NCBI GenBank assembly: GCA_011176635.1
Contig: DUEC01000027.1
Coordinates: 1 to 59,607, forward strand
From: Dehalococcoidia bacterium
Lineage (GTDB): Bacteria > Chloroflexota > Dehalococcoidia > Dehalococcoidales > BS750m-G39
Direction of reading: 5' to 3'
DNA: 59,607 nt
In this document: one piece after another, positions 6,969 through 27,783 of the stretch
Numbering within the stretch: position 1 is the stretch's first letter
Layout: the number at the start of each line of letters is the position of its first letter
Notes under the pieces: generated by a model
What the model was told of the DNA's origin: nothing
The model's input: the letters and a program-made list of their open reading frames with translations, nothing else
Databases searched by the model: none
Translations under genes and position numbers: made by a program

Positions 6969-7667
6969 TTAAGGGAAAATAATATCTACATACCCCTCTT
7001 CCTCAAATTCACGTTCCCCCTCTTCACTCCAAGACTCGAAGACCTCATAAACTAACCTAAGCCTAACCGGTTCCACATCCTCAGGCACCTCAAATATGAA
7101 CATCCCTTCCGCTCCCTCGGGTAACTCGAATTGGTATTCAGGAACACTCCACCCGATCGTCCAGCTACACTGCATTCCTTTGTACCCTTGGTATTCGCCC
7201 CCCAAGTCATCAACGAGAGTGGAGCCGGTGCCGCTATCAAAATGTCCGTCAGTTATGTGTACAATTGTCACATAAACAAAGATAAAGTCATACCCTTCTT
7301 TTGGCTCGCTTCCTTCAAATCCTCTCCACGCTAGTCCGGTTAGTTCTTCTGGCCATACGTTAGTCCTCTCCACATCATCTAGGCCAAAAGTAATTCGTCC
7401 ATCATCACTGGTAAATTGAAGCTCACCAGACGGAGGCGTTGTCGTTTCCTCGGGTGGCGGGGTTGTTGTTTCCTCACCGTCCTCAGTCGGCGGCGGGGTT
7501 GTCGTTTCCTCCCCGTCACCAGGCGGCGGGGTCGTCGTCTCCTCGCCATCACCGGGCGGAGGCGTTGTCGTTTCTCCGCCATTACCGTCACAAGCAACGG
7601 CTCCCATACCTACCAACAGGACCAGGACTGTCAAAAGCGCTATGGCTAATATCTTTACTTTCTTCAT
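6969..7667 (-). CDS. Probable lipoprotein: signal peptide with Cys26, a Thr/Pro/Glu-rich repeat linker, and a C-terminal Ig-like (DUF4352-like) domain
   Basis: 232 aa starting MKKVKILAIALLTVLVLLVGMGAVAC, followed by (GDGEETTTPPP)n. GAGGAGGG SD upstream. The C-terminal domain assignment is pattern recognition only. Confidence 0.7.
   Translation of the reverse strand: MKKVKILAIALLTVLVLLVGMGAVACDGNGGETTTPPPGDGEETTTPPPGDGEETTTPPPTEDGEETTTPPPEETTTPPSGELQFTSDDGRITFGLDDVERTNVWPEELTGLAWRGFEGSEPKEGYDFIFVYVTIVHITDGHFDSGTGSTLVDDLGGEYQGYKGMQCSWTIGWSVPEYQFELPEGAEGMFIFEVPEDVEPVRLRLVYEVFESWSEEGEREFEEEGYVDIIFP
7427..7667 (-). repeat. 5' module (signal peptide plus GDGEETTTPPP tandem repeats) shared with the gene at 7831..8520
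   Basis: The DNA at 7427-7667 aligns by eye with 8289-8520 at high identity, e.g. caccgggcggaggcgttgtcgtttctccgccattaccgtcaca(a/g)gcaacggctcccat in both. Internally there is a ~33-nt periodic repeat. Confidence 0.85.
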
Positions 7668-7710
7668 CCCCTACCCTCCTCTAAAATTATTTTAGCCAAG
7701 CAGGTCTTTT

Positions 7711-7739
7711 AATGTAGTCCGTATTTATATAGTTGTCAA
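7711..7739 (-). promoter_or_regulatory. Putative sigma70-type promoter for the 6969..7667 lipoprotein gene
   Basis: The minus strand reads TTGACA (7739-7734), a 17-nt spacer, then TACATT (7716-7711). Confidence 0.35.
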
Positions 7740-7830
7740 TGCTTAAATGGGCTTCCTAACACGCTGGCGCAAGCACGCTTTTCCCCTCCGCGGCGTACCG
7801 TATCTTGAGTATTTCCCCAATCAGTCTCGG

Positions 7831-8520
7831 TTAGCGCTGGTAGATGCCGATAAGCTCAGCCTGGTCTAATATGTGGCCCTCCATGGCATTTACCACCTGT
7901 GCCTTGCTTGCCCCGCCAGATAGGTCTAGGGTTATGTCCAAGGCATAGACGACAAAGTGAAAATGGTGCGGGCTACCCGGCGGTGGGCAGGGGCCGGCAT
8001 AACCAATCGTGCCGAAGCCATTCCTGCCCTGCGCTGCCCCGTTCGGCAACTGGGCGGTGGTTGGTATCGCCTCCTCCAGCCCGAGGGCGTCGGCCGGGAT
8101 ATTAAAGATTATCCAGTGGGTGAAGGTGCCTTCCACCGCATCGGAGTCCTCCACTATCAGGGCAAAAGACTGGGTCCCTGCAGGCACACCGCTCCAGCTA
8201 AGCGCCGGCGATATGTCCTGCCCGATACAGGTATACTGGACCGGTATCGTTCCACCTTCCTCAAAGGCTGCGCTTACAATCTCCATCTCCACCTCCTCGG
8301 TAGGCGGCGGGGTCGTCGTCTCCTCGCCGTCCTCGGTCGGCGGTGGGGTTGTCGTTTCCTCACCGTCTCCAGTCGGCGGCGGGGTCGTCGTCTCCTCGCC
8401 ATCACCGGGCGGAGGCGTTGTCGTTTCTCCGCCATTACCGTCACAGGCAACGGCTCCCATGCCTACCAGCAGTACTAAGACTGTCAAAAGCGTCACCGCT
8501 AAAATCCTTACTTTCTTCAT
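7831..8520 (-). CDS. Probable lipoprotein with a C-terminal YbhB/YbcL-type PEBP (Raf-kinase-inhibitor-like) domain
   Basis: 229 aa with the same signal/lipobox/TTTPPP linker as the upstream gene. The PEBP-family core follows (GGTIPVQYTC.G.DISPALSW, FALIVEDSDA, THWIIFNIP, GYAGPCPPPGS.HHFHF.VYAL). Confidence 0.8.
   Translation of the reverse strand: MKKVRILAVTLLTVLVLLVGMGAVACDGNGGETTTPPPGDGEETTTPPPTGDGEETTTPPPTEDGEETTTPPPTEEVEMEIVSAAFEEGGTIPVQYTCIGQDISPALSWSGVPAGTQSFALIVEDSDAVEGTFTHWIIFNIPADALGLEEAIPTTAQLPNGAAQGRNGFGTIGYAGPCPPPGSPHHFHFVVYALDITLDLSGGASKAQVVNAMEGHILDQAELIGIYQR
8289..8520 (-). repeat. Second copy of the signal-peptide/TTTPPP-linker module
   Basis: See 7427..7667. The two copies are near-identical over the signal peptide and linker, and the downstream domains are unrelated. 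Confidence 0.85.
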
Positions 8521-19823: not shown

Positions 19824-20567
19824 ATGAAGAAGGTTTTAGTCCTCTCATTAGCTCTTATCCTCCTGCTGGGGATAATGAGCAATGGCACCTCCAGCTATTT
19901 CAGTGACACCGAGACTGGCTCTGGTACCATATGTGCCTGGCTAGGCTGCCCGCCTGGAAGTATGATAATTGTCAGCGACACGAATACAATGGTCACCGAG
20001 GTCAACAACGCGCTACTAATTACTCCCCAAAATGCGGTACCTGCCTGGGAGCCATGTCTTTCATATCCAGCTTGTGACACAAGCATAGAAGATGACCCTT
20101 CACTCTGGGATAACAGCACGGGTAATTACTTCACTCTTACAGGTGCCGACTGGATATGGGACACTCGATTAACCAGTGACCCGGCAGCGGATGCGCCGGT
20201 ACTAGGACGGGTGGTGCGCTTTGAAAGGACATTCGATATCCCCTGCTCGCCGATTGGGGCTACCCTGCATATGGCAGTGGATAACGGCTACACCGTCTGG
20301 CTAAATGGAAACCTTGTCGGTTGCGCACAGGTTAATTCCGGTGGGGCTGACCCCTGTATAGACTGGTGGACCACTGACCTCACAGAGGCTTACGTGCATA
20401 CCGACGGCTGGCAGACTGTAGGGCATTATGCTATTCCTTCAATGTACTTAGTAGTCGGGACGAATACCCTCGTAATCCTGGCCGCTAATGAGCAGCTGCC
20501 GGATGGTACGGCGGAGAGCAATCCCGCCGGGTTAATTTACCAGCTTGAAGTTACATGGGGAGATTGA
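19824..20567 (+). CDS. Secreted protein with a SipW-cognate-type signal (SYFSDTETGSG) and a C-terminal beta-sandwich, possibly carbohydrate-binding-like, domain
   Basis: 247 aa with an AAGGAGG SD. The N-terminal motif is shared with the 18489 gene. Confidence 0.62.
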   Translation: MKKVLVLSLALILLLGIMSNGTSSYFSDTETGSGTICAWLGCPPGSMIIVSDTNTMVTEVNNALLITPQNAVPAWEPCLSYPACDTSIEDDPSLWDNSTGNYFTLTGADWIWDTRLTSDPAADAPVLGRVVRFERTFDIPCSPIGATLHMAVDNGYTVWLNGNLVGCAQVNSGGADPCIDWWTTDLTEAYVHTDGWQTVGHYAIPSMYLVVGTNTLVILAANEQLPDGTAESNPAGLIYQLEVTWGD

Positions 20568-22288
20568 TGACGATAAAGATGGGAAACGGTAGAATTATTA
20601 AGTATGCCGCCAGGCTGTTGCTGGCGGTAATAATAGGGCTGTTTATGCTCGGCTCATCACCGACCCCGGTACAAGCCGCAGACCCGCCATCAATAATCCT
20701 GACCCTGGGAGGAACGGGAGCTACCCCCTGGAGCATAGATGGTATTATGCCCTGCCAGAGCGGCACCGAGACGCTCACCCTGCACAACGCCGGTAACCTG
20801 GACGGCTTTGTTATTATCTGGATAGAAAATATCGTCAGCGATGAAGGTCTAAACTCCGAACCCGAAACTAATACCGCACCCGAAGACGGCGGTGAGCTTG
20901 ATGACTACCTGCTGTTTGACCTCTCCACCAACCCCGCCGGCGCTCTAGATACCAACCTAGCTCCGCCGACGACCATTGACAACTTCCCCCAGGACGCTTT
21001 CGACCCCAACTATATCTGGATAGTCCCCTTAAACCCCGGTGATACCGTCACCCTGAATTGGCATTGGGAGCTACCCTGCGCCACCGGTAACGATGCCCAG
21101 GGAGATACCCTTTCCTTCGACATAACCTATTTCCTGGTCGACGATTTTCCTCCTCCGCCGCCTCCACCTCTATTCACCGGCGGCCCTGGTGCTGAGGAGG
21201 ATTGTTTCATGGAAATAGACATGCTGGGTGAAATAACCATCATAGAGATGGACTGTTGTCTCAACAGGTCCCTTGAAGAAGAGCTGGCCTATGACCCCGA
21301 TGACCTGCACTTCATGGAGATTCTCTATAACATGGAGATACTTTGCGGTGAGTGTGCGGGATGCTACTGCTTCCCCCGCGTAGTGGTGATGAGTCTGTCC
21401 GAGCATGGACCGCCTCCACCGGAGGATATGACAACAGTAGGCCCGATTTATGATTTTACGGGGTATGAAGACAGCGACAGGAATGACCCCTGCTCTATCG
21501 CCACCTTCTTCGACCCGTTACTGATAATACAGCTCAGCTATAACCCCGACGACCTGCCTCCTGGCGCTTCTTCACCCGTTATCGCCTTTTATGACGATGT
21601 ACAGGGCTTATGGGTTACCCTACCCCCTGCCAGCGGTATACCGGCCGAAATCGGCAGGATAACCGCAGAGACAAATTACCTCGCTTCACCGTTCGCCATA
21701 CTGGTGAACGTACCTCCCCCATCCCAACCCCCCACTCTGGCCAATTTTGTGGTCAGTGACTTGAACATCACACCCGGCGTGAGGGAAATATGGCAGCCGG
21801 TTACCTTTGTCACCAAGACGGGAGAAAGCGTCACCATCACCGCCAATGTAACTAATGACGGCGGGCAGGCGGGCACTTTTACCGTCGAGCTACAGATAAA
21901 CGGGGAGACAATAGCCACTAAAGAAGTAACGCCGGGTGCCGGTCAAAGCGAGCTGGTAAGCTTCACCCTGACCGACTTAGAATCGGGGCGTTATGGGGTA
22001 ATGCTTTCCGGCTTGAGCGGTGATTTCAGGGTGTTCCTGAGCATCAACTGGTGGCTCATAATAAGTATAATCGCTGCCCTCTTGCTGTTAGGCTGGCTGA
22101 ACTGGTATCTCTGGTATCGTAAAAAGTGGCCCCGCGTTTGGAATCGCAGAAAGTGGCCCCGCATAAATTGGGCCCGCATCTGGTCTGATACCAAGGGGGC
22201 TCCCGTTTGGAAACGTGGATACTGGGCCCGCATCTGGTCACATATTCAGTCCTTTATAAAGGGGCTGAGACCAAAGCTGGCGTCTTAA
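20567..22288 (+). CDS. Membrane-anchored protein: signal peptide, TasA-like N-terminal domain, central domain, CARDB-like domain, TM helix, and a Trp/Arg-rich repeat tail
   Basis: The ORF is 20555..22288. I prefer the ATG at 20567, which overlaps the upstream TGA (TGATG) and follows GGGGAG. Signal cleavage is predicted at ..PVQA/ADPP. The CARDB-like segment is VVSDLNITPG...VTITANVTNDGGQAGTFTVEL.ING. The TM is WWLIISIIAALLLLGWLNWYLW. Confidence 0.62.
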   Translation: MTIKMGNGRIIKYAARLLLAVIIGLFMLGSSPTPVQAADPPSIILTLGGTGATPWSIDGIMPCQSGTETLTLHNAGNLDGFVIIWIENIVSDEGLNSEPETNTAPEDGGELDDYLLFDLSTNPAGALDTNLAPPTTIDNFPQDAFDPNYIWIVPLNPGDTVTLNWHWELPCATGNDAQGDTLSFDITYFLVDDFPPPPPPPLFTGGPGAEEDCFMEIDMLGEITIIEMDCCLNRSLEEELAYDPDDLHFMEILYNMEILCGECAGCYCFPRVVVMSLSEHGPPPPEDMTTVGPIYDFTGYEDSDRNDPCSIATFFDPLLIIQLSYNPDDLPPGASSPVIAFYDDVQGLWVTLPPASGIPAEIGRITAETNYLASPFAILVNVPPPSQPPTLANFVVSDLNITPGVREIWQPVTFVTKTGESVTITANVTNDGGQAGTFTVELQINGETIATKEVTPGAGQSELVSFTLTDLESGRYGVMLSGLSGDFRVFLSINWWLIISIIAALLLLGWLNWYLWYRKKWPRVWNRRKWPRINWARIWSDTKGAPVWKRGYWARIWSHIQSFIKGLRPKLAS

Positions 22289-22387: not shown

Positions 22388-22460
22388 GGGCCGCTAGCTC
22401 AACTGGCAGAGCAGCTGACTCTTAATCAGCAGGTTGGAGGTTCGAGTCCTCCGCGGCTCA
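22388..22460 (+). tRNA. tRNA-Lys (anticodon CTT)
   Basis: A 73-nt cloverleaf read by hand. Acceptor gggccgc/gcggctc (one G-U); D-arm gctc/gagc; anticodon arm gctga-ctCTTaa-tcagc; T-arm ggagg-ttcgagt-cctcc; discriminator A. CCA is not encoded. Confidence 0.9.
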
Positions 22461-22480
22461 TTTCAAAGCTAAATCGGCTT
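22418..22480 (+). repeat. attL: 63-bp direct repeat (43 nt of the tRNA-Lys 3' part plus 20 nt downstream)
   Basis: Identical to 27590-27652 except for two positions (G/A and C/T). These two positions pair with each other in the T-stem. Confidence 0.88.
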
Positions 22481-22497
22481 TCCCTACGCCGTAAAAG

Positions 22498-23543: not shown

Positions 23544-23572
23544 TTGACAGTTGGCTTAAGTGGTTGTAATCT
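23544..23572 (+). promoter_or_regulatory. Putative sigma70 promoter of the cargo operon; the predicted transcript is (nearly) leaderless
   Basis: TTGACA (23544-23549), 17 nt, TAATCT (23567-23572). The ATG at 23582 is only 10 nt beyond the -10 element, and there is no SD. Confidence 0.4.
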
Positions 23573-23581
23573 TGTTGCAAA

Positions 23582-24880
23582 ATGAGTAAGTTAGATACTA
23601 TTGTCAAGACTGGGTTGTCCGATGATTTTGCTGCTTATATAGACGATTTGAAATCTGAAATCCGGGGGGCTTATCTGGAAAATGATGCTCCTTGGATTGT
23701 TTGTTTTTCCGGGGGTAAGGACAGCACGGCGCTGTTGCAGTTGGTTTTTTACGCGCTGTCAGAGCTTGACGAAAAAGAGCTGGCGAAGGAACTGCATGTG
23801 CTGTCGAACGATACGCTTGTAGAAAATCCTGCAATTAGTAAGCATGTGGATGGGCAACTAGAAAGGATCAGAGTATACGGGCAGGAAAAGCTGTACAAGC
23901 ACAACCCGGGCTTGTTCTTTGTCGAGAAGGGCAAACCTAAGATCGAGGAGAGATTTTGGGTAAATCTTATCGGTAGGGGATATCCTTCTCCTAATAGATG
24001 GTTCCGTTGGTGTACGGAAAGGCTGAAAATAAACCCGACTAGCAAATATATTGGGGATTCGCTGGAGAGGCACGAAAAGGTAATCATAGTTTTGGGGACG
24101 CGAAAAGCGGAGTCGGCAAATAGGGCTGTATCAATGAGAAATTATGCCGGTAATGGGCGTTTCCGTAATCACACATTGCCTGATGCTTTGGTGTACGCTC
24201 CGATTGCTGACGTGTCTAACGATGATGTATGGTCTTACGTTCTGCTGACCCCTAATCCGTGGGGCGGCGATAATATGGACTTGTTAGATATATATGGAAA
24301 TGCTTGTGCCGGCGGAGAGTGCCCGTTTGTGATAGAAACGGGGGTACAAAGTTGCGGCAAATCACGCTTTGGGTGTTGGGTGTGTACGGTTGTAGATAGA
24401 GATAAGTCGATGGAGAACTTCATAGTTAATGGCGAAAAATGGATGGAAGGTTTGCTTGCTTTTAGGAATTGGATTTATGAAATAAGGCAAGAAGATAGCC
24501 AGTATGTTCCTCCAAGATTGGTTGGGAAAGTTCAATTTGGACCTTTCCTGCTACGGGTAAGGGAAGAAATGCTTGAAAGGTTGCTGAAATTGCAGGATGG
24601 AGTCGGCGTAGAGTTGATCGGCGAAGAGGAACTAAATATCACGCGGAGCCTTTTGGAAGAGGATAAAAAGGCACAGTCTGCGGGTGGGATGAGAAGATAC
24701 TTCTTTGAAATGAGTAAAGGGGAGAGAATTGCTGTGGTTTCTGATTGTAATGTAGCCGAAATAAAAAGAAAAAGATTAGGCCCAATATATTTAAAGAATA
24801 TAAAATTTAAAAAATCAGAAGATGTTACAAATAAATATCTGAAATCAAAAAGGGTAATGTACTACAGGGTGAAGACATGA
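23582..24880 (+). CDS. DndC-like / PAPS-reductase-family PP-loop ATP pyrophosphatase with a Cys-rich (probable Fe-S) segment
   Basis: 432 aa. PP-loop CFSGGKDSTAL; ..RWCTERLKI..; a Cys cluster CAGGECPF...SCGKSRFGCWVCTVV, which resembles the DndC/SspD-type RFGCW.CT motif. Confidence 0.8.
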   Translation: MSKLDTIVKTGLSDDFAAYIDDLKSEIRGAYLENDAPWIVCFSGGKDSTALLQLVFYALSELDEKELAKELHVLSNDTLVENPAISKHVDGQLERIRVYGQEKLYKHNPGLFFVEKGKPKIEERFWVNLIGRGYPSPNRWFRWCTERLKINPTSKYIGDSLERHEKVIIVLGTRKAESANRAVSMRNYAGNGRFRNHTLPDALVYAPIADVSNDDVWSYVLLTPNPWGGDNMDLLDIYGNACAGGECPFVIETGVQSCGKSRFGCWVCTVVDRDKSMENFIVNGEKWMEGLLAFRNWIYEIRQEDSQYVPPRLVGKVQFGPFLLRVREEMLERLLKLQDGVGVELIGEEELNITRSLLEEDKKAQSAGGMRRYFFEMSKGERIAVVSDCNVAEIKRKRLGPIYLKNIKFKKSEDVTNKYLKSKRVMYYRVKT

Positions 24881-26499
24881 GCAAAGCCCAAGAACCGATG
24901 AATGGTGAAATTAGGGTCGCTGACGTTTCTATCGCACACCTAAGCCGTGGACTTTATAGAAGTACAGCAGCTGCATTTAAAGAACTAGTTAATAATGCTT
25001 GGGATGAAGATGCCGAAGAAGTCCGTATATATACGAATTTCCCTGAGTTTGACTCCATTTCTTGCATGGACAACGGACCTGGAATGCCTGAAGAAAAATT
25101 CAGAGACTATTTCGCAGAAAAAGGGATAGGCTATGGGGACAAGAGAATTGGCCACAGGAATGTTACTGAGAAATATGAAAGACCAATAATTGGTAGACTA
25201 GGGATTGGATTGCTTGCCATTGGGCAGCTTTGTTATAGTTTCGGAATTGAGTCTCATTATATAGGCAAGGGGGGGAAGGGGCACGCCTACAGAGCAGATA
25301 TTGACTTGCTAGACATGGATGTGCCGGATATAGATGAAAGCTTGAGTAGCGACGAGAAGGAAGAAATAAAGGTAGGAAATTGGAGGTTAACAAGGATTCC
25401 CTATGAAGAGTCAAAGCAAGGTTTTAATATATATACATCAGATACAAGAGAGACATTTAGAAAAGAGATGAAAGAGAGTATAGCTGAAGAAGACAGACAA
25501 TTAATGTCTTTTAGTCTTCCAAAGTTGTACGAGAACTTTTACGACCTGGTTGAAAGGTCTGTTCGTGAAATGGGAGCATATCTTGAGACTATTTGGGAGT
25601 TGTGCGTCTTATGTCCGATAACTTATGGCGATGATAAAAAATTTCCTTTGGACCGTAAGGCGTTTAGTAAGGAATATAAAGACGGGGAATATAGAAAAGC
25701 AATCAATTTTGTTAATAAAAAGCGGTCGGAGTTGGCAAGTTACAATTTTAAAGTCTATTTTGACGGAATAGAGCTTAAAAGGTATGTGCAGCTGCCAAAA
25801 AAGCGAGATACTGTTCCGCATCTATTTTTCATTAATTATAGTGGGGAGGTTGCAGATAGGAAGCTTAATTATTATGGCTATATATATGGACAAACAAAAG
25901 CCATAAGACCGATTGAGCTAAGCGGAATTCAAATAAGGTTAAGAAACGTAGGGATAGGTGGCTATGATGGCACCTTCCTGAAATATGATAAGAAAATAGA
26001 GACAATAAGAAACAGATGGGTATCTGGTGAGGTATTTGTTGAAGATGGCTTAGAAGTGGCTCTGAATATAGACAGGGATAGCTTCAACGAACACGATGAA
26101 CATTTCAAAAAGATACAGGAGGATTTGCACAGCAAATTAGACCAGGTTTTTAAAAAAATTGAATCAACGGCCAACGAACTACGAAAAGAGAAACATGAAA
26201 AGAAAGAGGAAGAGGTTAGGGCTGAGACATGGACAGCAATTAATCAAGGAACGCATGGTAAAGTTGATGTTGTCGAGAAGGACCTGGGAATTAACAGGCC
26301 TTTAATAGTTATTGACAAAATCAATAAACGGTTAGTGCTGAATACGGCAATTAGACCAGTGAAAAAGAAAAAAGCTGATAACTTGATTAGATACGTATCT
26401 TTAGCATATCACGTTGCGAAGTATATATCTAAGACTGAAAACGAAAGGTACGATAATTTTTATAATATTATTAGGGAAATGCTGCGAAAAATAGCATGA
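24877..26499 (+). CDS. GHKL-superfamily ATPase (MORC/Hsp90/MutL-like Bergerat fold) with an uncharacterised C-terminal half
   Basis: 540 aa. The start overlaps the upstream stop (ATGA). N-box ELVNNAWDED; G1 box CMDNGPGM; G2-like GRLGIGLLAIG. A Lys/Glu-rich predicted helix lies near residues 430-450. Confidence 0.72.
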   Translation: MSKAQEPMNGEIRVADVSIAHLSRGLYRSTAAAFKELVNNAWDEDAEEVRIYTNFPEFDSISCMDNGPGMPEEKFRDYFAEKGIGYGDKRIGHRNVTEKYERPIIGRLGIGLLAIGQLCYSFGIESHYIGKGGKGHAYRADIDLLDMDVPDIDESLSSDEKEEIKVGNWRLTRIPYEESKQGFNIYTSDTRETFRKEMKESIAEEDRQLMSFSLPKLYENFYDLVERSVREMGAYLETIWELCVLCPITYGDDKKFPLDRKAFSKEYKDGEYRKAINFVNKKRSELASYNFKVYFDGIELKRYVQLPKKRDTVPHLFFINYSGEVADRKLNYYGYIYGQTKAIRPIELSGIQIRLRNVGIGGYDGTFLKYDKKIETIRNRWVSGEVFVEDGLEVALNIDRDSFNEHDEHFKKIQEDLHSKLDQVFKKIESTANELRKEKHEKKEEEVRAETWTAINQGTHGKVDVVEKDLGINRPLIVIDKINKRLVLNTAIRPVKKKKADNLIRYVSLAYHVAKYISKTENERYDNFYNIIREMLRKIA

Positions 26500-27503
26500 A
26501 CGGGCCAGATTGGGACACAAGATATAGTAAGCACTATGTCCGCCGGGACGGCTGGTTACCAGCGAGTAAAGAATACATAAAAAAAACAGGAAAATCGGTA
26601 GTAAAGTATTTTACTCTATGTGATGTTCATGCAATAGATATATTCATGCTTGAGATGGAAGGAATTCTCCCCCGGGATGAGAATGGTAAACTACCAAATG
26701 TTATAATTTGTGAAGGATCCGTACACAAAGTTCCATTAATAAATAAGTTAGTGAAACCACCGTTAGAAGAAGCAATTATACTTGCAAACCTTGAGGATCT
26801 TATTACGTTTGAAGACGATGAATACACAAGAACTACGCCGTTGAAGACGTATGAAAGAGACAGATCAAAAAGGCAAAGGCTTAGGTTAAAAGAAAGGCAC
26901 GAGCGTTTCAAGCTGTTTCTTCCGTTTGACATTATCAATTTTGATCCGAGCAATAGTATATTAGGACAAGCGCTAGAAGTTAATAAGTTGTATAAAGCTC
27001 TTGAGAAAATATTCGAATTGCAGAAATTAACCAATTATTTCTTATTGTTCGTTACTACCAATATATCAAATCCACACGTCAGCATAGTGAGAAAATGCAT
27101 GAAGGAACTCGGCGAGAACCTGGAAAAGTATCCAAGATTGAAAGAAGCAATGACTAAGCGTTTGGGTGAAGTAGAATACAATAAGATACCTGAGCAATAT
27201 AGAATACCAATCTGCTTTGTTAAATCATTCGTGGTTGATATTGCAAGGCGGAAGGGATGGTATTGTGAACATAGAGGGGTTTTCGTGTATGAAAATCCAG
27301 ATAAAAGTAAAATGTTGGCTTCGGTTGTCTTTTGTACGCAAGTAAGAGGCGAACAAGATGAAGCAGCGTATCTTAATGATATTATCAGCGTGATTGGAGG
27401 CCAGATGAAGTATCACTCTTATGCTGATTCATTAAAGGATAAGCCCATTCAAGAGGACTTAAAAGCGATAATAAGTTACAGAGAGAAGGTGCGTAGGGGC
27501 TAG
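26496..27503 (+). CDS. Orphan hypothetical protein (335 aa), third gene of the cargo operon
   Basis: The start overlaps the upstream stop (ATGA). I recognise no motif. There is a basic patch (YERDRSKRQRLRLKERHERFK) and alternating beta/alpha-like segments (KYFTLCDVHAIDIF, FDIINFDPSNS, FLLFVTTN). Confidence 0.6.
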   Translation: MNGPDWDTRYSKHYVRRDGWLPASKEYIKKTGKSVVKYFTLCDVHAIDIFMLEMEGILPRDENGKLPNVIICEGSVHKVPLINKLVKPPLEEAIILANLEDLITFEDDEYTRTTPLKTYERDRSKRQRLRLKERHERFKLFLPFDIINFDPSNSILGQALEVNKLYKALEKIFELQKLTNYFLLFVTTNISNPHVSIVRKCMKELGENLEKYPRLKEAMTKRLGEVEYNKIPEQYRIPICFVKSFVVDIARRKGWYCEHRGVFVYENPDKSKMLASVVFCTQVRGEQDEAAYLNDIISVIGGQMKYHSYADSLKDKPIQEDLKAIISYREKVRRG

Positions 27504-27589
27504 AATAAATGTCTAGCAGTCTAGAACAGCTGAAAGCCGGGCAAAGCCTTTATTCTTAAGGGCCGGTTTTGCTGGTTTTCGCCAGCAGA

Positions 27590-27652
27590 ACTCTTAATCA
27601 GCAGGTTAGAGGTTCGAGTCCTCTGCGGCTCATTTCAAAGCTAAATCGGCTT
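27590..27652 (+). repeat. attR: second copy of the 63-bp tRNA-Lys 3' repeat
   Basis: actcttaatcagcaggttAgaggttcgagtcctcTgcggctcatttcaaagctaaatcggctt. See the attL entry. Confidence 0.88.
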
Positions 27653-27783
27653 ACCGGGTTTAAGGCCTCCCACCACACCACATTTGAAAGCAACTAGTTT
27701 TACTATTGGCCTTACTATTAATATAATAGAGTCATTGCGGTAACCAGCGGTTTTTAAGACTTTGGCAAAAGGAGTGAAAAGAA

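Follow-up and report, generated by a model that had tools for sequence, protein, structure and literature searches.

According to a December 2025 review, the defence systems based on DNA phosphorothioation (PT) are only Dnd-FGH, Dnd-Pbe, TdpABC, Ssp-E, and Ssp-FGH (PMC13223576). The companion machineries in the papers cited here are DndFGH, PbeABCD, SspE, SspFGH, TdpAB, and BREX-4 (bacteriophage exclusion type 4), and for most of them PT sensing is poorly understood. Here we analysed a three-gene operon in contig DUEC01000027.1 of a Dehalococcoidia bacterium (metagenome-assembled genome, GenBank assembly GCA_011176635.1), a stretch of 59,607 nucleotides that we call the window. Gene 1 encodes a short-type DndC, gene 2 (G) a GHKL ATPase with similarity to Hsp90 and MutL, and gene 3 (P) a protein with a divergent class-I methyltransferase fold. 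From gene order and co-occurrence across genomes we draw the firm conclusion that G and P are obligate partners in a two-gene module with a functional tie to DNA phosphorothioation. In the window this module is present in its most compact form, with the short DndC as the only PT gene. The closest described system is TdpABC by architecture, the Dnd family by gene content, and the restriction-modification (R-M) systems with paraMORC proteins by the nature of gene 2.

TdpABC is a 'hypercompact' PT system of thermophiles (An et al., Nat Chem Biol 2025, cited in PMC12914056). As outlined in the citing article, it resembles the operon of the window in having three genes, of which one DndC-like gene is the sole modification gene and suffices for PT while the other two form the companion machinery, and neither system clusters with DndA, DndD, or DndE. 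The two differ in their partner proteins, which in the window are a Hsp90-like GHKL ATPase and a methyltransferase-fold protein; Tdp is compared here by its description only. TdpA is reportedly a hexameric DNA translocase and TdpB a nuclease. No Tdp-like relatives of G or P were found in the PDB by sequence, profile, or fold, a result that is telling only if Tdp structures are in the set searched; provided that they are, homology of G or P to TdpA or TdpB is unlikely. An earlier note on this DNA had proposed a minimal PT-like system of new architecture, but TdpABC, as summarised in PMC12914056, is already a precedent for a three-gene, single-writer PT system. The architecture is that of a PT-based modification or defence system, a category already known, with an uncharacterised and rare partner pair.

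The Dnd systems (dndABCDE with dndFGH or pbeABCD) resemble the module in that gene 1 meets the curated DndC model and that G-P of other genomes is part of genuine dndCDE islands, next to pbeABCD or dptFGH. In contrast, the window has no dndA, dndB, dndD, or dndE and no FGH or Pbe genes, its DndC belongs to a short subfamily with another C-terminus, and G and P match no PADLOC model of Dnd or Pbe proteins. An identity of G-P with PbeABCD was rejected for this reason and because the composition of Pbe differs, with a helicase-like PbeA, a 66-aa PbeB, an SMC-like PbeC, and a 152-aa PbeD (PMC6459918). SspABCD-SspE and BREX type 4 (brxPCZL) also have writers of the 3'-phosphoadenosine-5'-phosphosulfate (PAPS) reductase family tied to a PT-sensing or PT-dependent defence arm; G-P of Hadesarchaea is coupled to a BrxP/SspD-like reductase, and the short DndC heads BREX-type clusters in other genomes. 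However, SspB, SspC, SspE, BrxC, PglZ, and BrxL are all missing from the islet that carries the operon, and neither G nor P was matched by the PADLOC models of DndFGH, SspE, or BREX components. The module thus does not belong to Dnd (there is no DndD or DndE), Pbe, DndFGH, Ssp, or BREX. MORC and paraMORC systems share with it a GHKL-plus-transducer ATPase, mobile DNA-conflict operons, and a methylase-like partner, but no link to DndC or PAPS reductase is reported in their description (Iyer, Abhiman & Aravind 2008, PMC2292703), the fold of G is closest to Hsp90/TRAP1, and the islet encodes neither a helicase nor an endonuclease as a partner. Gene 3 and its relatives match the central core of the PP_RS20740 family, but score far below its cutoff. 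A literature search for DndC, PAPS reductase, or phosphorothioation together with GHKL, MORC, HATPase, or Hsp90, with most subscription journals outside its coverage, retrieved no description of the module. PADLOC placed only gene 1, as DndC, and has no model for genes 2 and 3; the operon hence keeps the status of a candidate undescribed PT-linked module that the earlier note had given it.

Results

G and P are adjacent and lie near phosphorothioation genes in bacteria and archaea

We surveyed one genome per GTDB species, resulting in 34 loci, and added metagenomic contexts to describe architectures. A locus was counted as PT-linked when a PT writer (short DndC, full dndCDE, or a BrxP/SspD-type PAPS reductase) or dnd genes lay within 10 kb of G-P. 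This was the case for 31 of the 34 species-level loci, and 32 of the 34 had some PT-related gene. For comparison, dnd genes are present in roughly 4-10% of genomes, and dndCD clusters in about 4% (PMC12914056). In each of the 47 fetched loci with G and P, some of which are redundant, the two genes were adjacent, mostly with a 4-bp overlap. In 12 loci with a triad of short DndC, G, and P, the pairwise identities of the three proteins were correlated (r = 0.82-0.90, 66 locus pairs). The module spans bacteria and archaea, and its neighbours across the loci include a HinfI R-M system, DpnI, HicB, and other defence genes.

The gene pair occurs in several architectures. Translationally coupled short DndC-G-P triads like the one in the window (architecture i) are found in Dehalococcoidia, WOR-3, Ignavibacteria, Anaerolineales, Verrucomicrobiota, Brocadiaceae, Coatesbacteria, and others; the recurrence of the triad, which the earlier note had named as a check, therefore extends over many phyla. 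Loci L015, L022, L030, and L032 have dndC-dndD-dndE-G-P on one strand, sometimes with dndA, as confirmed by PADLOC (ii). In many Poribacteria G-P is convergent with dndE-D-C, and these islands also contain pbeABCD, with scores of 807-860 bits for PbeA (iii). Planctomycetota have dndA and dndC-dndD-DndE::HerA-G-P (iv), and one Sphingobacteriales genome has G-P beside a DptFGH-like cluster with dndE and dndD (v). In Hadesarchaea the next gene after G-P, overlapping it by 4 bp, encodes a PAPS reductase of 317 aa and the BrxP/SspD type (vi). The G protein of Chitinophaga is 50% identical to that of the window, as close as the G proteins of triads, yet its partner is a canonical dndCDE; writers have thus been swapped despite the correlated identities.

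The three remaining loci (L036, L039, and L040) have no writer within 10 kb (vii). In L036 the gene directly 5' of G-P (7347-8339) encodes an HNH_2 protein with a full-length but sub-threshold match to the NCBIfam family "phosphorothioated DNA-binding restriction endonuclease" (140 bits with a cutoff of 180; E = 8e-41). In L039 (6935-12063) and L040 (8318-12063) a distant G-P is followed, with a 4-bp overlap, by a gene for a 367-aa protein that gave only a sub-threshold Radical_SAM match and chance-level matches in the PDB. Ahead of G-P in L039 are genes for a TcmP fragment and a DUF5131 protein, which form a gene pair that is known but has not been characterised. A relationship of gene 3 to TcmP is unsupported (hhalign probability 0.6%).

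Several islands have features of their own. In the Planctomycetota loci L034 (6766-8322) and L038 (6760-8323) a gene for a 518-aa fusion of DndE with a HerA/DUF87-type ATPase stands between a DndD-like gene and G-P; in L038 both this gene and P appear fragmented. Sponge-symbiont Poribacteria (loci among L020-L035, L037, and L041) have large PT islands with dndCDE, sometimes dndA, G-P, and pbeABCD in conserved arrangements (for example L022, 4145-15823). The G-P-PAPS reductase genes of Hadesarchaea (L003, 1-15000) are in a setting like that of a defence island, with DpnI, PD-(D/E)xK, SLFN/AlbA_2, HATPase_c_4, nucleotidyltransferase, and HicB-like proteins. Many metagenomic contigs with triad genes measure no more than 4.2-5.8 kb and are thus similar in size to the islet in the window; the module may often be strain-variable or flanked by repeats, so that assemblies break at its edges.

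Gene 1 belongs to a short subfamily of DndC

Gene 1 scored 378.4 bits against the curated DndC equivalog TIGR03183, above the cutoff of 290.4, and 391 bits against the PADLOC DndC model, compared with 37-39 bits for the PADLOC SspD/BrxP models and 14-39 bits for BrxP, SspD, TtcA, and TilS models. A role in PAPS/APS (adenosine-5'-phosphosulfate) metabolism or tRNA thiolation, which the earlier note had listed as a way in which its assignment could fail, was rejected with 14-52 bits as opposed to 378-400 bits for DndC-type models. The motifs on which that assignment to DndC was based, the SGGKDS PP-loop (S43-S48) and SRFGCWVCTVV at residue 261, are in place, and an alignment of short with canonical DndCs showed no variation in the PP-loop or at the cysteines C144, C247, C258, C265, and C268. 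Gene 1 is thus predicted to be a PP-loop ATP pyrophosphatase with Fe-S cysteine motifs and a PT writer. No DndC relatives were detectable in the PDB.

The match of gene 1 covers positions 2-365 of the 447 in TIGR03183 and leaves the canonical C-terminal region unmatched. A homology search revealed a distinct "short DndC" subfamily of 408-450 aa, at least 54% identical, in which the canonical C-terminus is replaced by the subfamily's own conserved basic tail of about 70 aa. When we looked at contexts from the side of DndC, one further copy (L044) was again in a triad, and two others (L042, 10001-21302; L043, 10001-21299; 55% identical, same tail) head BREX type-1-like clusters. In these the short DndC is followed by an ORF (open reading frame) of 227-254 aa, BrxB, BrxC, a PglX-type methyltransferase, and PglZ, and the clusters contain neither G-P nor dndD or dndE; they are possible hybrids of PT and methylation-based BREX. 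As the tail is the same in these copies, it is not a docking device for G-P, and the writer appears portable on its own. A Prok_Ub/Prok-E2/Prok-JAB/ThiF cassette is located just upstream of the BREX-type cluster in L042.

G is a GHKL ATPase with an Hsp90-like fold

Gene 2 matched Pfam HATPase_c_3 (8.8e-12) and has all the Bergerat boxes that were read from its sequence at the outset, ELVNNAWDED at residue 36, DNGPGM at 65, and GRLGIG at 106. Residues E36, N40, D65, G67, G69, G106, G109, and G111 are invariant in 54 homologs, as is a LNIDRDSFNEHDEH motif. In the AlphaFold model (pLDDT, the predicted local distance difference test, 83) the GHKL domain is accompanied by a middle (transducer) domain, a long helix, and a C-terminal domain that is small and basic. 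Its best 50 Foldseek matches were all Hsp90, TRAP1, or GRP94 (best E = 3.3e-12), and the N-terminal and middle domains were those aligned to Hsp90/TRAP1. The same 54 homologs have an invariant loop, LNIDR400DSFNE405HDEH409. Its LNIDR(400)D part recalls the catalytic-arginine loop LNISRE of Hsp90. E405 and H409, both invariant, give an ExxxH after the transducer loop, a feature described for paraMORC2 (PMC2292703).

Profile searches of the PDB with G identified only the N-termini of MutL and PMS2, and PADLOC only those of REase_II; its N-terminus is weakly similar to models of the restriction enzymes BbrUII and HgiDII and of MutL. No nuclease domain was recognisable in G with Pfam, PADLOC, PDB profiles, or Foldseek. 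A search of plasmid and viral collections found no relatives of G or P, and there is accordingly no evidence from these collections that G and P are phage or plasmid genes.

P has a divergent class-I methyltransferase fold

The earlier note found no nameable motif in gene 3, but the family has strongly conserved motifs and a confidently predicted methyltransferase-like fold. The AlphaFold2 model (pLDDT 94.4; predicted template modelling score, pTM, 0.92) has the beta1-beta7 strand order of a class-I methyltransferase. Among the 50 PDB matches listed by Foldseek, 49 were methyltransferases or proteins with a methyltransferase domain, although the matches were weak (best E = 5e-4, TM-scores of 0.3-0.45); most of the named matches listed from the viral database BFVD were methyltransferases as well (best E = 3e-4, same range of TM-scores, again weak). 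The family is invariant at E73, an acidic residue at the end of beta2, and in the post-beta4 sequence N148-F-D150-P. It lacks the glycine-rich S-adenosylmethionine (SAM) loop of motif I (GxGxG), with C-x-x-x-A-x-D in the post-beta1 loop, and the catalytic motif IV, (D/N)PP(Y/F), as the aromatic residue is missing after N148-F-D150-P. The earlier statement that there is no recognisable methyltransferase has to be qualified in view of the fold of gene 3.

P and its relatives match the PP_RS20740 family (NF047698) over the central beta4-beta5 core, and a database protein identical to gene 3, as well as P homologs, carry Pfam PF28273. The scores against NF047698 (50 bits for P and 32-80 bits for ten relatives) are all under its cutoff of 200, so that P belongs to a sister group of the PP_RS20740 family (NF047698/PF28273), whose function is not known (PMC9630843). 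The P family is rare, with 463 representative clusters at E ≤ 1e-3 among 1.84 billion. In the local Pfam library gene 3 had no significant match and 57 of its homologs gave chance-level matches only; no PADLOC model matched P, and the PDB contained no sequence or profile relatives of it.

The triad is the sole cargo of a tRNA-integrated islet

The features of the islet are listed in Table 1. The three genes are on the same strand and are coupled by ATGA start/stop overlaps at 24877-24880 and 26496-26499, precisely where the earlier note had placed them. They are the sole cargo of a 5.2-kb tRNA-integrated islet, as proposed in that note; the 66-nt repeats, which differ at 3 of 66 positions, enclose the integrase and the three genes. 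The note's absence of further dnd, ssp, or brx genes also holds: no homologs of dnd, ssp, dpt, pbe, or brx and no cysteine desulfurase were found elsewhere in the 59.6-kb window, the remainder of which consists of housekeeping and metabolic genes.

Table 1. Features of the tRNA-integrated islet (positions in the window)
Feature	Coordinates	Strand	Support
tRNA-Lys (CTT), integration target of the islet	22388..22460	+	ARAGORN
attL (left attachment site), 66-nt direct repeat: 3' part of tRNA + 23 nt	22418..22483		repeat search
Tyrosine recombinase/integrase, 320 aa	22498..23460	+	Pfam Phage_integrase 1.5e-33; GC 0.61, GC at third codon positions (GC3) 0.81
Promoter-like site: TTGACA, 17-nt spacer, TAATCT	23544..23572	+	read from the sequence, weak evidence
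Gene 1, short-type DndC, 432 aa	23582..24880	+	TIGR03183, PADLOC DndC
Gene 2 (G), Hsp90/MutL-like GHKL ATPase, 540 aa	24877..26499	+	Pfam HATPase_c_3, Foldseek
Gene 3 (P), PP_RS20740-like, divergent class-I methyltransferase (Rossmann) fold, 335 aa	26496..27503	+	AlphaFold2, Foldseek, NF047698
Terminator-like hairpin followed by T-rich tail, 3' of gene 3	27546..27573	+	consensus match only
attR (right attachment site), second 66-nt repeat copy (3' tRNA fragment)	27590..27655		repeat search

The cargo has a GC content of 0.38-0.43 (about 39%) and a GC3 of 0.37-0.45, compared with a GC content of 0.53-0.56 (about 55%) in the flanks. With the integrase above the flanks and the cargo far below them, the islet is compositionally chimeric, which suggests that cargo cassette and integrase differ in origin. 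Of the three mismatches that separate attL from attR, two are a compensatory pair in the T-stem of the tRNA (GGAGG...CCTCC and AGAGG...CCTCT); judging from this, both copies seem to derive from functional tRNA-Lys alleles, which fits integration from another host lineage. The integrase and tRNA are not a general vehicle of the module, a possibility that we rejected as other triads have no related integrase or adjacent tRNA.

Of the single good promoter claimed upstream of gene 1, the perfect -35 hexamer (TTGACA, 23544-23549) and the spacing hold, whereas the -10 hexamer (TAATCT) matches the consensus at only 3 of 6 positions and a consensus scan made no call. Because the -10-like hexamer ends only 9 nt 5' of the ATG and a Shine-Dalgarno sequence is not visible, the mRNA from which gene 1 is translated may be leaderless or nearly so.

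A 577-aa ORF (20555-22288) adjoins the tRNA upstream. The N-terminus of its product is signal-like, proline-rich stretches and a predicted membrane segment are present, and the unusual, repetitive C-terminal tail is rich in Trp, Arg, and Lys and contains WPRVWNRRKWPRINWARIWSDTKGAPVWKRGYWARIW. Among the window proteins outside the islet, one matched PADLOC mad3 of the MADS system (E = 1.8e-27) and others matched mad8, subtilase/IetS, and CARF-type models; generic domains of housekeeping proteins may account for these matches.

Discussion

The G-P pair is found almost only inside PT gene clusters, and it therefore probably reads or exploits the PT mark. Its co-occurrence with complete dndCDE, its association with three non-orthologous types of writer, and the presence of a relative of a PT-binding nuclease as its only PT-related neighbour in one locus point to recognition of PT-DNA rather than of a given writer. 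The module is laterally mobile, as suggested by the tRNA/integrase islet with its foreign GC content and by its occurrence in both bacteria and archaea. Mobility and the family context of the GHKL ATPase, which includes restriction enzymes, MutL, and paraMORCs, fit a role in defence or addiction; paraMORC GHKL proteins are typical components of R-M systems (PMC2292703). Our data establish the identities, folds, and conservation of the genes, their coupling in an operon, their mobility, and the nearly exclusive linkage of G-P to PT genes; from these we infer that the short DndC of the islet writes PT alone, that G-P is a reader of the mark and not a helper in its synthesis, and that defence results. 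The combination of an autonomous writer with a reader or effector acting on its mark is the explanation we favour, and we hold it with moderate confidence.

According to this model, gene 1 would replace a non-bridging backbone oxygen by sulfur at a short motif in host DNA, with the sulfur coming from a host cysteine desulfurase. It would do so without DndD or DndE, as reported for TdpC, and its subfamily-specific basic tail may supply the DNA contact that is otherwise given by the canonical partners. G-P would be an ATP-driven dimeric clamp, similar to Hsp90 or MORC and with a methyltransferase-fold subunit, that acts downstream of the mark. The clamp would sense PT on DNA and then block or mark DNA without PT; alternatively, PT on self DNA would activate G-P, as is the case for SspE. 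The outcome would be restriction-like defence, together with addiction of the cell to the islet. Because no nuclease is visible in G-P, its action may be non-degradative, as in Pbe or BREX, or it may use the invariant acidic/His cluster E405-H-D-E-H409 of G.

Several observations weigh against this model. No toxic effector or nuclease domain is recognisable in G or P by Pfam, PADLOC, PDB, or Foldseek searches. The islands of Poribacteria and of the Sphingobacteriales genome already contain pbeABCD or dptFGH, so G-P is not needed there as a restriction partner and is possibly an accessory. P may be a modifier rather than a reader, given its enzyme-like modelled fold and invariant polar residues. 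The short DndC always adjoins some ATPase, either G or, in BREX loci, BrxC, which fits a need for an ATPase cofactor. Bacteroides dorei CL03T12C01, with a PAPS reductase beside an unspecified ATPase, lacked PT by LC-MS (PMC12914056), which would tell against PT writing by the module if that ATPase were a G homolog. Finally, G-P is without a nearby writer in L036, L039, and L040.

The earlier note supposed that the GHKL ATPase and the orphan protein replace DndD and DndE, or that the operon is a modification-coupled defence system, and the latter now fits better. In the former case G would take the ATPase role of DndD, SspC, or BrxC and P the DNA-binding or target-selection role of DndE or SspB, making the triad a minimal PT synthase with no restriction arm. 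The short DndC indeed has no canonical C-terminal region, neither DndD nor DndE is encoded in the islet or the rest of the window, and the short DndC is translationally coupled to G-P and co-varies with it; its sole other context seen is again a cluster with an ATPase (BrxC), and PT synthesis has been argued to need a PAPS-reductase domain and an NTPase (PMC12914056). Such a role would be redundant, however, where G-P follows complete dndC-dndD-dndE operons, and it is difficult to reconcile with the pairing of G-P with a non-orthologous BrxP/SspD-type reductase, with the locus that has G-P and a relative of a PT-DNA restriction enzyme but no writer, and with the tail of the same type in BREX-linked short DndCs without G-P. 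TdpC, as far as its description in PMC12914056 goes, shows that a solo DndC-like writer is possible. The occurrence of G-P beside complete dndCDE and of the short DndC in BREX clusters without G-P makes it more likely that G-P reads PT than that it replaces DndD and DndE, and we regard its function as a writer cofactor, the main rival explanation, as unlikely. We are considerably more doubtful about the possibility that G-P maintains, regulates, or processes the mark, for example by controlling PT density, handling DndC nicks or adenylated intermediates, or repairing oxidised PT, so that the islet would provide an epigenetic or stress trait instead of immunity. Islands with an effector of their own (pbeABCD or dptFGH) are compatible with such an accessory, as are the relationship of G to MutL/Hsp90-type ATPases, a kind that couples to nick processing, and the acidic residue in the Rossmann fold of P that binds the adenosine ribose in methyltransferases. 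But the mobility of the module, its sporadic distribution across domains, and its defence-gene neighbourhoods are typical of immunity or addiction modules, and several effectors sharing one PT mark are already documented (PMC6459918).

An active enzymatic role of P would change the model in another way. P could be a Rossmann enzyme acting on the product or an intermediate of DndC, with G as the ATP-driven clamp that delivers it; the triad would then make or read a new, second-step backbone modification, or it would be a nuclease-free PT-reading effector with a new mechanism. Its reaction might be a SAM-dependent alkylation of the PT sulfur, which is nucleophilic; alternatively, P might bind an adenylated backbone intermediate or resolve it. 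We consider this quite unlikely. The least probable explanation, with a very small chance in our view, is that G-P has come to lie in defence islands by coincidence and is a self-contained, MORC-type R-M-like pair with P as an active methyltransferase and G as the ATPase or restriction partner. The resemblance of the GHKL N-terminus to BbrUII and HgiDII, the methyltransferase fold of P, and the association of paraMORCs with methylases (PMC2292703) would agree with this. Yet 31-32 of the 34 species-level loci are PT-linked, far above the frequency of dnd in genomes, and G-P is coupled by 4-bp overlaps to DndC or PAPS reductase genes; moreover, P has neither the glycine-rich SAM loop nor (D/N)PP(Y/F), and G has no nuclease domain.

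Overall, our analysis describes a rare two-gene family, a Hsp90-like ATPase with a methyltransferase-fold protein, which in bacteria and archaea nearly always lies within PT clusters and whose most compact version shares a mobile 5-kb islet with nothing but a shortened DndC. As the same short DndC also leads BREX type-1-like clusters, it may be a 'PT writer cassette' that is portable and can be combined with different immune systems. Should the short DndC write PT on its own, it would add a second and independent example of phosphorothioation by a single enzyme and be convenient as a minimal tool, and if G-P reads PT without a nuclease, it would offer a small, tractable system to study the recognition of backbone sulfur. 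With three genes in less than 4 kb and a promoter of its own, the operon is directly testable, and this small and conserved module could be informative on both the writing of PT by a minimal enzyme and its reading.

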